DNA from: a virus
Lineage: Duplodnaviria; Heunggongvirae; Uroviricota; Caudoviricetes
IMG/VR virus record: IMGVR_UViG_2690316099_000001
Length of the DNA: 6,962 nucleotides
Strand: one strand, 5' to 3'
This document shows, in pieces, positions 1-6,247 of this stretch. The translations under genes and the position numbers were made by a program. A model generated the notes under the pieces. The model was not told where the DNA came from and made no database searches. It worked only from the letters and a program-made list of their open reading frames with translations. The stretch's first letter is position 1, and each line of letters starts with the position of its first letter.

Positions 1-47
1 ATACACTAAATCAGTAAGTTGGCAGCATCACCTCATTCGTCTGTTCC

Positions 48-554
48 TTAAATCTTCCAGGAAATTTCTGCATTGCCGTCAGCATCACCGGCACCTGTGA
101 ATTCAGCGTTGGTCAGCACCACGTTTTTGCCACTGACTGACGTGGACATGAATCCACCCAGCGGCACTTTGATGGATTCATCAGTGGAGACGACAACGTA
201 TACCGGATCGCCTTTTTTGATAGTGCTGGCATCAAAATCAGAACCGAGATTAACGGTCACGTAGCCACGCTTCATGGCGTCGCCCGGGAAGTTCTTGCCT
301 GTTCCCACCTGGCGAACCATGTCCGGCTGCGACGTGGTCGGATAAGGGCGCACGTAGATCCCCTTCACCTTGTCTGCGGTATCACCATCTGCCAGCGGCA
401 CGAAAAAACCGTCATCATCGTATTTACCAGCCAGGCCATAGGCAGCGAAGGCGTTATCGGATTTAAGGACCACCGGTTCGACGGTTAAGTCCTGCGGGCG
501 AGAGACAGCCCCGGCAATGCCAACAGGCATCCGGTACAGAAATACATTATTCAT
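48..554 (-). CDS. putative phage head structural protein (possible decoration/cement-type protein; function not established)
   Basis: 168-aa ORF with ATG at 554..552 and TAA at 50..48. It starts 3 nt after the stop of the upstream 406-aa gene, with AAAGGG about 6 nt upstream of the ATG. Its position after the protease/scaffold-like gene in a head module suggests a structural role. No motif I can name with certainty. Confidence 0.55.
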   Translation of the reverse strand: MNNVFLYRMPVGIAGAVSRPQDLTVEPVVLKSDNAFAAYGLAGKYDDDGFFVPLADGDTADKVKGIYVRPYPTTSQPDMVRQVGTGKNFPGDAMKRGYVTVNLGSDFDASTIKKGDPVYVVVSTDESIKVPLGGFMSTSVSGKNVVLTNAEFTGAGDADGNAEISWKI

Positions 555-557
555 TTT

Positions 558-1778
558 TTACCCTTTACGGTTTGCCCAGAATTCAGCGTTTTGTTTGTTC
601 AGGGAAGCGATACTGGTCATGCCCATGTTTAGGCGCTGTGCATCGCCGGTGGTGGCGCGGGTGTTTCGCCCTTTGGCAACCTCAGACACGGCATTAAACG
701 CCATGTCGACCGATTGTTTCGGTAATTTGCGGATATCCGCATCACCGACTATCTGGCGAACCAGCGTTTTGTCAGCAGAAGCCAGAACCTCGCGTTTGAA
801 CGCGGTCGGTTTCATCTTACGGCTCAGATCGATACCCGGAACGATAACTTCGGCACGCCAGGCTGAGTCACCAGTAATCGTGGTTTCCTCTTCATCGTCC
901 TCGCCGTCACCGGTCGGATTATCGTCAGGCTTATTATCGTTATCGCCCGTGGCATTTCTTTCCAGCTTAGCCAGCAGGGCTTTCAGTAATGTTTTGAGGT
1001 CATCATCACTGTCGCCGGTTGGATCTCCGCCCATCTCTGGTGCTTTGTCCGGTAGTGGTTGCTGCGGGGACAGGTTGATGTTGAGATTAACGCCCTGCGG
1101 CAAATCCCCCTCATCTCCTGTAACCGATGCGGGAGCCGACTCCACCAGTTCGTTCATGGTGTCGGCATCTCCTGTCTTGATGGCCGCACGCATGCGGTTC
1201 CACCAGTTTTTCTTTTGATTTGCCATTGTGTCTCTGTCTCCAATTGCACAACGATTTCCGGCTCTGCCTTTAGGGACAAGAGCCACATGGTTTCCGGTAA
1301 TATCGACCTGCTCGGCTTTACCTGGCTCGGTCTGCTCGTACTCCGCGTCATAGCCGCACGACACTTCGCGCAGGCCATCTTCGATAAGCTGAATGGCGCT
1401 TTCGTCTTTGACGATAAGGTCAGCCAGCATCAAATCAGACTGCTCACCCGTCCCGCGCCGGACATTCTGGAGGTGCCCGACAGCAAGCTCTTTCCAGTTC
1501 TCGGGATTTACCAGCCGCACATTCCCGTTTTCATCTTCAGGATGCAGGATCGTGATGCTCATCCCTTCGAATGAGGCAAGCGTGGCCGGATGGAATACCT
1601 GCTCAGGAGAACGCGTGACGACTATTTCACCGAACTTATCGGGTTTCAGTTTTGGCAGGTCATCAGCACCATAGAGCTGCTTACCTGTTCGTCCTATCGG
1701 CACGTCTTTGCACAGCAACGAGCCGTCAGCCAGGCGGTATCGGGTTTCCCCGAGCCTGGTCTCAAAAAAGTATTTCAT
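558..1778 (-). CDS. putative prohead protease / scaffold-like head assembly protein
   Basis: 406-aa ORF with ATG at 1778..1776, 3 nt after the TAA of the Mu F-like gene, and TAA at 560..558. It has a globular N-terminal half, then a long acidic Asp/Glu/Gly/Thr-rich low-complexity stretch (TGDNDNKPDDNPTGDGEDDEEE) and a helical segment (DDLKTLLKALLAKLERN). This architecture resembles fused protease-scaffold proteins of phage head modules; the family assignment is inference. Confidence 0.55.
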   Translation of the reverse strand: MKYFFETRLGETRYRLADGSLLCKDVPIGRTGKQLYGADDLPKLKPDKFGEIVVTRSPEQVFHPATLASFEGMSITILHPEDENGNVRLVNPENWKELAVGHLQNVRRGTGEQSDLMLADLIVKDESAIQLIEDGLREVSCGYDAEYEQTEPGKAEQVDITGNHVALVPKGRAGNRCAIGDRDTMANQKKNWWNRMRAAIKTGDADTMNELVESAPASVTGDEGDLPQGVNLNINLSPQQPLPDKAPEMGGDPTGDSDDDLKTLLKALLAKLERNATGDNDNKPDDNPTGDGEDDEEETTITGDSAWRAEVIVPGIDLSRKMKPTAFKREVLASADKTLVRQIVGDADIRKLPKQSVDMAFNAVSEVAKGRNTRATTGDAQRLNMGMTSIASLNKQNAEFWANRKG

Positions 1779-1781
1779 GGG

Positions 1782-2564
1782 TTATGCTGCCCTTTTCATT
1801 GCGAATGGAACGCGAACAAACACGATCTCTTTATAGCAGCGGCAGTTTGGCAGCTCGCCCGCGTGGCCGGTCATGCCGTCCAAAGTTGGAGGTGAATCCC
1901 AGCGGACGAATTTACCTTTCATGTGATCGTGGGAATCTCGGACATCGCCATCATCGGCTGTACGCCAAATATAACCATCCGAGCCAATAGCTATCGCTCG
2001 GGCCATATCCAGCGCGCCCGTTGCTCTTCCCAGTTCCGTTCGGGCAATCAGATCGGCCCTAGACTTAGCAACATCGCCGGTAGATGCAATCTCTTTAGCA
2101 AACTGCTCCGCCCGACCACCGGTGACAACAGCCTCTATCGCTTTGTTCTGGATGTCGTACACCCTGTCTGCGGCCTCGAGAGGCAGAGATTTGATGTACT
2201 TGACCTGTTCGGCGATGATGGATTGCATCACCTGGCCCACAGGAGCGCTTTCCACAAGATTGCGGAGCTCGCGACTGATGTTCTTGCTGTGTTGCCGCCA
2301 AACTTTCTCGTTCTGCCGGGTTAGGTCCGCAGTAAAGTTTTCCGCGACCTTTGTCGCCCAGGGGGTGATGATTTCACTGTAACGCTCCAGCGCCGCAATA
2401 ATTTCCGTGATACTGTCATTTGAACCATCGTAGCGACCATTTACGATGTCTCCGACCGCCCTCGCTATCCTGCGTAGGCTGGTTCGATACCGGATTTCCG
2501 CCTGACGGCTCCTGCGGTTCGTCATCAGGTTCGCCGATGCCGGGCGGCGCTTCATCTTCGGCAT
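1782..2564 (-). CDS. phage head morphogenesis protein, Mu F / SPP1 gp7 family
   Basis: 260-aa ORF. The C-terminal region (WRTADDGDVRDSHDHMKGKFVRWDSPPTLDGMTGHAGELPNCRCY) matches the conserved core of minor head / F-like proteins. GAGGA lies about 8 nt upstream of the ATG at 2564. The 5' end overlaps the portal 3' end out of frame, so the true start may be internal (for example ATG at 2525). Confidence 0.8.
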   Translation of the reverse strand: MPKMKRRPASANLMTNRRSRQAEIRYRTSLRRIARAVGDIVNGRYDGSNDSITEIIAALERYSEIITPWATKVAENFTADLTRQNEKVWRQHSKNISRELRNLVESAPVGQVMQSIIAEQVKYIKSLPLEAADRVYDIQNKAIEAVVTGGRAEQFAKEIASTGDVAKSRADLIARTELGRATGALDMARAIAIGSDGYIWRTADDGDVRDSHDHMKGKFVRWDSPPTLDGMTGHAGELPNCRCYKEIVFVRVPFAMKRAA

Positions 2565-3498
2565 TCTCGATGTCCTCGTCGGTAATGGATGCCCCGATGC
2601 CGGTTACGTCAGAATTTTCTCGCAAATCAGTCATAGCGGCTTTCAGTGTCATCAGACCATCACCCAGCGCCGTACTGATTGCGTTGGTGGTGTTTAACGC
2701 CACCGTTGAGCGATCGACATCAGACATTTGCCAGAGCGGGTTAAACTCAAACGTGAAATCGTCCGGCAGCGGCTTGCCAAGTTCCGAACGATGCATGATG
2801 TCCAGTATCCGCCGCACCGGAAGACGTAAACGCCTCTCCTGCAACGAACTGATGCGATCGTAATAGTTGGCAAGGTCTGCATCACCGGTAGAAAATCCTT
2901 TCGGGGACTGTCCGAACAACCGCACCAGTGGGATACCAACAGCGCCACTAATCTGTTCTACAAACTGCGAAAGGATGTCATCCAGACCACTGAAGCTGTA
3001 CTGATGGGTTTCAAACTTATCCCGCGAGTCCATGAGCGTCATGCCTTCATTACTCTGGAACTGTCGAATCAGGTCGATATTCTTCAGCAACGCTTCATAC
3101 GCAGGACCACCAAGTGCGATAAGCTCGCGTAGCTTCTCCACGCTGTAGGTACGCAAATGCGCCTTGTAGACCAGCTGCGCCGCGCCGACAGTAGCGCTGT
3201 CGAACGCGGTAAGACGATCCCAGATACGCTCTACAACCGACATTCCCCATTCGTTCTCGGTCATCTTCTGCTGAAATGGCAACGTGACGCCATCAAAGCG
3301 AATCAGGCGACTGTGATGAATGCGCCAGGCAGGAATTCCCGTTGCTGTGGTCACCACATCGTAAAACTCAGGTTTACCCAGGTCCGGCCCCATATCTTTA
3401 ATGCGGCGGGTCAGTGCCGGGTCGACCATCCAGCGGTCGAGCGGGAGAATCCCCTTAAACTTGCCCTTACCGATGGTTTCGGGTCGCAGCGGGGTCAT
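2416..3498 (-). CDS. phage portal protein (largest uninterrupted ORF; C-terminal about 360 aa of the portal reading frame)
   Basis: 360-aa ORF lying between the large terminase and the Mu F-like gene, the canonical portal position. It has an acidic C-terminal tail (DEDIENAEDEAPPGIGEPDDEPQEP). ATG at 3498 is preceded by GAGGGG. The same frame is open upstream to an ATG at 3882 apart from two TAG codons. Confidence 0.75.
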   Translation of the reverse strand: MTPLRPETIGKGKFKGILPLDRWMVDPALTRRIKDMGPDLGKPEFYDVVTTATGIPAWRIHHSRLIRFDGVTLPFQQKMTENEWGMSVVERIWDRLTAFDSATVGAAQLVYKAHLRTYSVEKLRELIALGGPAYEALLKNIDLIRQFQSNEGMTLMDSRDKFETHQYSFSGLDDILSQFVEQISGAVGIPLVRLFGQSPKGFSTGDADLANYYDRISSLQERRLRLPVRRILDIMHRSELGKPLPDDFTFEFNPLWQMSDVDRSTVALNTTNAISTALGDGLMTLKAAMTDLRENSDVTGIGASITDEDIENAEDEAPPGIGEPDDEPQEPSGGNPVSNQPTQDSEGGRRHRKWSLRWFK

Positions 3499-3882
3499 TG
3501 GTGCCTACCCCTCAATCATGATGAAACCCACCGCGCCGCCGTAGAGGCGCGACCATTTCAGCACGTCATTCAGCGCATCCCAGATTTGCAACTCATCCAG
3601 TTGTGATTCGAGAATGCCACGATCTTTTGCATCAATTTCCGAAGTGATGCGAATGCCTTTGCGGGTCATATCATCCGGGATAGCATCGACTGCTTCGCCG
3701 ATGATCTAGGATGAACGATAGGACCATTCCACCAGCATGCGGTTACGACTGGTGAAATTAGCCCGGTAGGTGGATGCTGAGTGCTGGTTAGGTGTCTGCA
3801 TCCCTACGCGGGCAATAAAATTCTCATAACCATCAGCTGTGGCCTGCACAGTTCGCCGCAGGGCTTGTTTGTTTCGTGCCAT
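3499..3882 (-). pseudogene. N-terminal part of the portal reading frame, separated from the main ORF by two in-frame TAG codons (3708..3706 and 3507..3505)
   Basis: ATG at 3882..3880 shares one base with the terL stop (TGA 3884..3882) and has GGGGAG upstream. Hand translation in this frame gives MARNKQALRRTVQATADGYENFIARVGMQTPNQHSASTYRANFTSRNRMLVEWSYRSS, then TAG, then IIGEAVDAIPDDMTRKGIRITSEIDAKDRGILESQLDELQIWDALNDVLKWSRLYGGAVGFIMIEG, then TAG, then AP and the MTPLRPE start of the 360-aa ORF. There is no frameshift. Confidence 0.6.
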
Positions 3883-5285
3883 CAGGCCTGTCTCCCCAGC
3901 TGTTCCCAGATATCCAGCGATGTATCGATTGGCGCGAAGGCCATAATGAATGCATCAGCAACGTTTGGTGACGGTATCTCGCGTTTTGCGAGGTCTTTTT
4001 TACTTTCGACCATCACACGTCCGTTACGGTCGAAATCACGATGAGGTGTTGTCAGTTCCAGTTTCAGCTTTTCAAGCAACGGACAACGAGAATCTATGCT
4101 GATCAGCTCATCCACAGGATACTGTTCTCCGTTGTTAATGGCGTTAAACGTATTTCTGAAACGGTCAGCCACCAGCCACCATGCCTGAGCCTTAAGATTT
4201 GCGAAAAAGTCTTTGTTGGGGATGCCGTTGTACTCGTCATCTGGCTCATGCACACCAGCACCGGCGTTAAACCTCTGGTAATTCACACGTCGCGCGTATG
4301 CGTTCTCGCTCTTCCGGTCAGCGTTAATTTCAGAGAATTTAGCACCGGCAGACGCACCAACACCGATAGAGTCGTAAACAATATCTGCTTCACGCTCCAG
4401 CGCCGCCTGATAAGTACGCTGGCAGCTCTTCAGTAATTCATCTTCTTTGGCCTTCCATTCGTCGGCCCAGAAAACAACGGATCCGTGACGGTAAACGTTA
4501 GCGCACTTATCTGTACCACTGTCAGCCACGTCAAAGCCAATACGCTTTCTTCCACTGGGTTCGAAATTTAACGTTTTGTGCGCATCCACTGCGGCTTCTA
4601 TCCAAGACAGTTTGATGATTGCCGCATCATCATCAGACTCCGGAACGCCCTCATACACATGTTTAAAACCATCCGGATCACGGCGTCGCGCCGCGTCGAT
4701 AACCTTAAGCATGGTGTCAGACAGAAACGGATTTTCGTCATAGTTAATTTTGCGGATGAGAGTGCCTTCGGGCGGATCAACAACGAAGTTGCGCCAGACG
4801 AAATCAGTAACAAGTCCGGGGTTGAATATGAACCAGCATTCCGAACCCTCTTTACGGATCGTTGGCTCCAGAATTTTCCACTGGTATTCCGTCAGTGCGT
4901 GGGCTTCTTCCAGCCACAACACATCGATCCCCTCCAGTGACTTAATTTCTTCGATGTTGCGCCATAATCCATAAAAAACAAATTCCGAGCCAGTAACCCG
5001 GTTAATGATTTTGTTGTTCAGAATACGGAAACGGTGCCGCAGACCAAACCTGTCTATCTGAATTTTGAGCAGGGTATACACCGACTCTTCGATTTTATTC
5101 TGGATCTGACGGGCACAACAAAAACGCAGGGTGTATTTATTCGACAGAAATATGGCAATGCCAGCGGCATCCCATGATTTTGACGATGACCGACCACCAT
5201 AAAGCACTTTGTTACGTGCCCGCATAGTCCAGAAACTACGTAAAGCCGGATTCAGCGTCGGTTTGGATGTCAGAGTAGAAGTCAT
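3882..5285 (-). CDS. terL: terminase large subunit
   Basis: Long ORF (maximal extent 3882..5393) with a P-loop-like motif near the N-terminus (VLYGGRSSSKSW), a Walker B-like DVLWLEEAH, and a C-terminal nuclease-like region with conserved acidic residues (GFDVADSGTD, VADAFIMAF). The first 50 or so codons of the maximal ORF overlap the terS 3' end out of frame, so the start is more likely internal. Chosen start is ATG 5285 (GGAGAG about 10 nt upstream); alternatives are ATG 5312 and ATG 5225. Confidence 0.8.
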   Translation of the reverse strand: MTSTLTSKPTLNPALRSFWTMRARNKVLYGGRSSSKSWDAAGIAIFLSNKYTLRFCCARQIQNKIEESVYTLLKIQIDRFGLRHRFRILNNKIINRVTGSEFVFYGLWRNIEEIKSLEGIDVLWLEEAHALTEYQWKILEPTIRKEGSECWFIFNPGLVTDFVWRNFVVDPPEGTLIRKINYDENPFLSDTMLKVIDAARRRDPDGFKHVYEGVPESDDDAAIIKLSWIEAAVDAHKTLNFEPSGRKRIGFDVADSGTDKCANVYRHGSVVFWADEWKAKEDELLKSCQRTYQAALEREADIVYDSIGVGASAGAKFSEINADRKSENAYARRVNYQRFNAGAGVHEPDDEYNGIPNKDFFANLKAQAWWLVADRFRNTFNAINNGEQYPVDELISIDSRCPLLEKLKLELTTPHRDFDRNGRVMVESKKDLAKREIPSPNVADAFIMAFAPIDTSLDIWEQLGRQA

Positions 5286-5895: not shown

Positions 5896-5945
5896 NNNNN
5901 NNNNNNNNNNNNNNNNNNNNNNNNNNNNNNNNNNNNNNNNNNNNN
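5896..5945. other. 50-nt run of N (masked or unresolved sequence) inside the 5' region of the small terminase locus
   Basis: Direct observation of n characters. Confidence 0.95.
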
Positions 5946-6018: not shown

Positions 6019-6247
6019 NNNNNNNNNNNNNNNNNNNNNNNNNNNNNNNNNNNNNNNNNNNNNNNNNNNNNNNNNNNNNNNNNNNNNNNNNNNNNNNNNN
6101 NNNNNNNNNNNNNNNNNNNNNNNNNNNNNNNNNNNNNNNNNNNNNNNNNNNNNNNNNNNNNNNNNNNNNNNNNNNNNNNNNNNNNNNNNNNNNNNNNNNN
6201 NNNNNNNNNNNNNNNNNNNNNNNNNNNNNNNNNNNNNNNNNNNNNNN
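6019..6247. other. 229-nt run of N (masked or unresolved sequence) covering the divergent intergenic region between terS and the DedA-like gene
   Basis: Direct observation of n characters. Confidence 0.95.

Follow-up and report, generated by a model that had tools for sequence, protein, structure and literature searches.

The stretch of DNA analysed here, referred to as the window (6,962 nt; IMG/VR record IMGVR_UViG_2690316099_000001), carries a phage head module on its minus strand, in which the large terminase gene (terL) is followed by a portal frame and by further head genes (Table 1). The portal frame is the only one of these that is read here as broken by stop codons, and at the left edge of the window the module is cut by an insertion sequence.

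Table 1. Features of the window; positions are counted from its first letter.
Feature	Position	Strand	Description and basis
IS1 terminal repeat	1..32	-	truncates the prophage; read from the sequence
Major capsid gene remnant	33..36	-	first 4 nt (ATGA), all that is left; window compared with FDAARGOS_944
Cement / minor capsid gene (168 aa, Gp24-like)	48..554	-	PF23982, PF22758
DUF2213 head protein gene (406 aa)	558..1778	-	PF09979
Mu F-like head morphogenesis ORF	1782..2564	-	PF04233; annotated in relatives
Portal gene, very probably a pseudogene	2416..3882	-	488 codons + TGA, broken by two in-frame TAG codons; translation
Fragment 3 (360-aa ORF, ATG 3498 to TGA 2418..2416)	2416..3498	-	C-terminal three quarters of the portal
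A308V (GCA>GTA)	2960..2960	-	third S. sonnei-specific portal change; C>T transition
Amber codon 126	3505..3507	-	from CAG (Gln) via C>T at window 3507
Fragment 2 (codons 60-125 + TAG; 66 sense codons)	3505..3705	-	translation
Amber codon 59	3706..3708	-	from TGG (Trp) via G>A at window 3707
Fragment 1 (58-aa ORF: ATG 3882 + 57 codons, then TAG)	3706..3882	-	translation
terL, large terminase (467 aa), intact	3882..5285	-	PF04466, 131 bits; free of in-frame stops; annotated in relatives

Translation of the minus strand gives a single frame of 489 codons from ATG 3882 to TGA 2416, in which the TAG triplets at codons 59 and 126 are the sole breaks and no frameshift occurs. The stop codon of terL (TGA, 3884..3882) shares its final A with the portal start codon (ATG, 3882..3880), forming an ATGA overlap, and a Shine-Dalgarno-like motif, GGGGAGA, lies upstream of this start. 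The order of 58 sense codons, TAG, 66 sense codons and TAG in one unshifted frame is as given in a preliminary description of this DNA, and the coupling of the portal start to the terL stop, with a ribosome-binding site, proposed there is borne out by the overlap and the motif; its coordinates for the frame, both TAG codons and ATG 3498 agree in every case with the sequence and its translation. Within fragment 2, an ORF for 54 aa opens at ATG 3669. The second TAG is followed by GCA CCA (Ala, Pro) and then by ATG 3498, a stop-start spacing of 6 nt, with the motif GAGGGG 9 nt upstream of this ATG.

Several features of the neighbouring genes were also recorded. Up to 149 nt at the 3' end of the portal are shared, in a different frame, with the Mu F-like ORF, whose start differs between annotations (247 aa versus 152 aa). 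Directly upstream of terL, and overlapping it by ~50 nt, lies a gene for 254 aa (5285..about 6030, minus strand), which matched no Pfam family and gave only sub-threshold helix-turn-helix matches; its position suggests that it probably encodes the small terminase subunit. A gene for a DedA-family membrane protein (PF09335; 6261..6773, plus strand), in antisense orientation, separates the lysis cassette from the terminase genes; it is a moron-like insertion that is conserved in the relatives. Two runs of N, at 5896..5945 (50) and 6019..6247 (229), correspond to 16 and 197 real bases in S. sonnei and the E. coli relatives, the masking having altered the length, and they hide the start of the 254-aa gene and the intergenic region.

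Portal homology of the three fragments

When the frame is repaired, its 488-aa product matches portal models and solved portal structures. The score against Pfam PF06381 (Phage_portal_3) is 353.8 bits over residues 55-402 (cut-off 33.8 bits), and that against NCBIfam TIGR01555 (HI1409 family) is 255.5 bits, with the match beginning at residue 17 (cut-off 196.25 bits). PHROG 146 ('portal protein') is matched over residues 3-488 (E=3e-174), as are two solved portals, that of Pam3 over residues 15-413 (PDB 8hds; E=5.8e-38) and gp19 of E217 (PDB 8fvh; E=8.8e-15). Family models, homology to solved structures and a position directly downstream of terL all agree, and the repaired product is a genuine portal protein. 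A functional member of the family would have a single uninterrupted ORF for the entire domain; here that ORF is broken by TAG at codons 59 and 126.

Taken separately, the fragments account for parts of this domain. The 360-aa ORF scores 186.1 bits against TIGR01555, below the 196.25-bit cut-off, and covers only model positions 122-400, lacking positions 1-121. The 54-aa fragment has a PF06381 match of its own and constitutes the whole of phrog_28295. Since all three fragments fall within one conserved portal domain, they represent an interrupted gene rather than a chance juxtaposition of ORFs. Likewise, conserved portal sequence makes up the 124 codons that precede ATG 3498, because the alignments to PF06381, TIGR01555, PHROG 146 and the Pam3 portal extend into them. 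By the preliminary description, its reading would have been contradicted by homologous portals that begin at the position of ATG 3498 and show no similarity upstream; the homologues instead start at codon 1, and the relatives have Trp and Gln at the two TAG positions. Trp59 aligns with a Trp of the Pam3 portal.

Some NCBI records give fragments of the DUF1073 family the name 'anti-CBASS protein Acb1 family protein'. For 2416..3882 this name looks misapplied: the 2025 Pfam entry PF06381 is called 'Phage portal protein', and the solved portals 8hds and 8fvh match.

Ancestral codons and spread of the TAG allele

The closest E. coli copies of the gene (FDAARGOS_943, FDAARGOS_944 and VL40) are an intact 1467-nt CDS for 488 aa (WP_000113499.1) and are three nucleotides apart from the window in this gene, these being the changes W59*, Q126* and A308V. 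The portal is also intact in S. flexneri SFBU1023, in E. coli ECMA0423, in more distant E. coli copies and in the induced phages vB_EcoM-606R2/689R2/611R5/683R1. Of the 115 IMG/VR loci that could be evaluated at codon 59, 111 have TGG and four have TAG; at codon 126, among 121 loci, CAG is found in 117 and TAG in four. The four TAG loci all carry both stops and are all identical to S. sonnei. A pattern scan of species-representative genomes around codon 59, in which either TGG or TAG was allowed, returned three genomes, all with TGG. Intermediates with a single stop (TAG59 only or TAG126 only) were found neither among the 121 IMG/VR loci nor in any locus that we fetched. Because the intact relatives have TGG and CAG, both ambers are derived, S. 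sonnei-specific changes, each a single G:C>A:T transition. A guess made earlier from the window itself, that the first TAG had been TGG (Trp), thus agrees with every relative examined.

Frameshifted portal fragments of further strains occur in other databases (P0038, P0040, P0042 and P0045).

Many Shigella sonnei chromosomes, including those of 53G (HE616528.1) and 75/02 (CP019689), match the window at 100% identity over all unmasked bases; these two strains belong to lineage II and lineage IIIc, respectively (PMC5447701). Exact matches to the fragment products are numerous in public assembly blocks (2576 for 360 aa, 2758 for 54 aa and 2737 for 58 aa), with more than 1000 contigs for each fragment. 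All three products have S. sonnei entries in public databases; the 360-aa product is UniProt Q3Z426_SHISS and the 58-aa product appears, for example, as FORC11_0741. For the 54- and 58-aa fragments, the matches listed were all in S. sonnei contexts.

In a comparison with the two closest relatives, we counted seven S. sonnei-specific substitutions over about 6.6 kb. Six are G:C>A:T, and the polarity of the four outside the portal rests on these two relatives. These four comprise one synonymous change each in the DedA gene, the 254-aa gene and terL, and S403N in DUF2213. The portal itself has two nonsense changes and one missense change. G:C>A:T transitions are the commonest spontaneous change, and about 5% of the possible ones in the genes of the window would create a stop. 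The probability of at least two nonsense changes among six is about 0.03, for a window that was picked because of those very nonsense codons. We considered whether this excess might be a sign of selection or mutagenesis and rejected the idea, as a P value of about 0.03 before correction for ascertainment was judged not meaningful. The pattern fits relaxed constraint on a gene without a purpose, with no need for mutagenesis or selection.

Decay of the surrounding element

The left end of the window, GGTGATGCTGCCAACTTACTGAT, is what we take to be the end of an IS1 element, and in all S. sonnei loci genes for InsA/IS1 transposase lie next to it. The prophage of FDAARGOS_944 occupies the same pgl site and is the sole intact relative whose right end was examined. 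There, the full major capsid gene (PF09950, Major_capside, 294.7 bits) is followed by tail, baseplate and tail fibre genes, ipaHb, a partial invertase gene and pgl-ybhD-ybhH-ybhI-ybhJ-ybhC. In S. sonnei, IS1 is succeeded by the partial invertase gene and then by pgl. About 16 kb of the FDAARGOS_944 arrangement, from capsid to ipaHb (a T3SS effector gene), is therefore missing from the S. sonnei locus, since IS1 directly adjoins the partial invertase and pgl. We read this loss as an IS1-adjacent deletion and, less probably, as an inversion that carried the block elsewhere.

The other side of the element is disrupted as well. On the upstream side, IS transposase genes are found in and beside the holin gene, and in lineage III copies they replace the region of the Q-type regulator. 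Three marks of a degraded prophage are present: the orthologues are intact, other essential genes are lost or disrupted, and the allele is reproducible. A relic that cannot build a capsid from the S. sonnei locus would have no role for a portal there.

Two observations concern the wider neighbourhood and a related strain. Compared with FDAARGOS_944, a second IS1 in S. sonnei stands in place of ybhH-ybhI. In E. coli FDAARGOS_943 (L001, 280..5119), an IS2 lies inside terL and the Mu F-like gene has an internal stop, while the portal is intact; here the same element has decayed independently, in a different lineage.

Interpretation and comparison with known systems

We regard the portal frame as an ordinary nonsense pseudogene in a decaying S. 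sonnei prophage, with a probability of roughly 0.93. The element would be a lambdoid or myovirus-type prophage that integrated beside pgl, and its portal would have lost function through two independent point mutations, one turning codon 59 from TGG into TAG and the other turning codon 126 from CAG into TAG. Ribosomes coupled from the terL stop would terminate after 58 codons, and so no full-length portal would be made. The decay would extend to the whole element, with IS1 positioned 4 nt into the major capsid gene, the capsid-to-ipaHb deletion, and IS insertions in the holin and late-regulatory region. In the order of events that we infer, the portal would have come under no selection, and would have accumulated hits, because the capsid needed for assembly was gone. 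Recent inactivation in a decaying prophage had been among the readings offered in the preliminary description, and it is strongly supported by the intact orthologues, the derived nature of the changes, the deletion of capsid and tail genes and the IS insertions. Two points sit less easily with this reading: the number of nonsense mutations, two among a handful of lineage-specific substitutions, is somewhat above the neutral expectation, and the 360-codon ORF remains open and has a plausible Shine-Dalgarno motif. An open ORF of this length is, however, expected in a young clone with only seven substitutions in about 6.6 kb, and it would be a sign of recent inactivation rather than of kept function.

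The latter point underlies the alternative that survives best, though we consider it improbable: a 360-aa portal may be produced from ATG 3498 by termination-reinitiation after TAG126 and may have a retained or new function, for example interference with head assembly of superinfecting relatives. Re-initiation at this ATG, as suggested earlier for an N-truncated portal, is mechanically possible, given that the start lies 6 nt past TAG126 and has GAGGGG 9 nt upstream, and the ORF is unbroken in more than 1000 contigs. Beyond this mechanical feasibility the proposal gained no support. Such a protein would lack TIGR01555 positions 1-121 and score under the family cut-off, and the absent part aligns with the solved Pam3 portal. 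It would also have no partners in assembly, the major capsid gene being gone from the locus, and IS elements stand between the late genes and their Q-type regulator. Finally, the gene has also taken the missense change A308V.

A counterpart in S. dysenteriae Sd197 bears on the same question. Its ABB62211.1 (P0003) is a 360-aa ORF that opens at the same ATG as window 3498..2416, which is a point in favour of a truncated product. It is identical to the S. sonnei ORF at 355 of 360 residues, keeps the ancestral Ala308, and has four amino-acid changes of its own. Its extent suggests that a stop or break lies just upstream; Sd197 may share TAG126 or may have an independent break there. When IMG/VR was scanned for TAG126 alone, only contigs identical to S. 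sonnei were returned. There is a slim chance that the 360-aa fragment is translated and kept for a function, such as poisoning the portal-ring assembly of related superinfecting phages, or, as a related possibility, that S. dysenteriae type 1 has the same broken allele because a dead prophage segment recombined between Shigella lineages.

Less probable still is that the TAG codons are read through and a full-length portal is made, whether by an amber suppressor tRNA, by reassignment of TAG to Gln (code 15), or because the element is a sus/am mutant phage. Both stops are amber, CAG>TAG and TGG>TAG are classical routes to amber mutants, and one of the TAGs replaces Gln, the residue that supE-type suppression or code 15 would insert. 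However, the two TAGs align with two different residues, Trp and Gln, and all relatives have sense codons at both sites. In-frame TAGs number two in the portal and zero in terL, the DUF2213 gene and the cement gene. The window holds no tRNA, and no tRNA with a CUA anticodon was found in the 21-kb S. sonnei loci (about 10 kb on each side), where a tRNA-Met in one of three flanks was the only tRNA; the four prophage tRNAs of a relative (Met, Arg, Thr and Gly) likewise include none with this anticodon. Moreover, capsid and tail genes are absent at the locus, leaving a full-length portal without assembly partners, and the source strains include clinical isolates (53G and 75/02; PMC5447701) and not a mutagenised laboratory phage. 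The amber-mutant or suppressor-dependent phage that had been envisaged for this locus is therefore unsupported.

Sequencing or assembly error, which had also been raised, can be dismissed: apart from its prior possibility, it has in its favour the extra single-base indels found nearby in some nanopore-only S. sonnei assemblies, but complete genomes that differ in project, technology and lineage agree on the bases at both sites, and the same allele recurs in contigs of IMG/VR and in over 2500 assembly blocks, so that base-call error is excluded by an identical allele in complete genomes across S. sonnei lineages and in over 1000 contigs.

The nonsense pseudogene is real but ordinary, and its fragments have long been entered one by one in public records as 'putative bacteriophage proteins'. 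Little follows from it except for annotation: the S. sonnei products of 58, 54 and 360 aa listed under that name are not genes of their own but parts of a single dead portal gene. The locus also offers one more illustration of prophage decay in Shigella, in which IS elements insert, DNA next to them is deleted and G:C>A:T changes create nonsense codons; here the deletion took with it an ipaH effector gene that relatives have at the pgl site. The two TAGs, together with A308V, could serve as markers of the S. sonnei lineage.

Among known systems, functional counterparts are the PF06381 (formerly DUF1073)/TIGR01555 portals, such as those of Pam3 and of Pseudomonas phage E217 (gp19), with which the repaired S. 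sonnei sequence aligns along almost all of its length. The gene order of the phages that carry them, terL, portal, Mu F-like, DUF2213, cement and major capsid, is likewise the same. Unlike these functional portals, the S. sonnei frame has two ambers and the downstream capsid gene is deleted. Closer still are the intact orthologues of the WP_000113499.1 strains, S. flexneri and the vB_EcoM phages, which belong to the same prophage module at 98-99.8% nucleotide identity; in contrast to S. sonnei, they keep TGG59, CAG126 and GCA308 in an uninterrupted 488-codon CDS.

The case also resembles the classical amber (sus/am) phages and the phages that use code 15, in that in-frame TAGs derived from CAG and TGG occur in a late structural gene. 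It appears to differ from both, as judged from sequence comparison, in that the TAGs are confined to one gene, the mutations seem to be fixed in a natural bacterial clone, and the element would be without capsid and tail genes. A further parallel is the decay of Shigella genomes at large. PMC8072062, with reference to Hawkey et al. 2020 and Feng et al. 2011, describes IS expansion in these genomes and pseudogenisation by IS insertion and point mutation. The S. sonnei prophage combines insertions of IS1 and other IS elements, an IS-adjacent deletion and nonsense mutations within one element. It is a further instance of this decay, affecting genes of a prophage instead of metabolic genes, and nothing essential differs.
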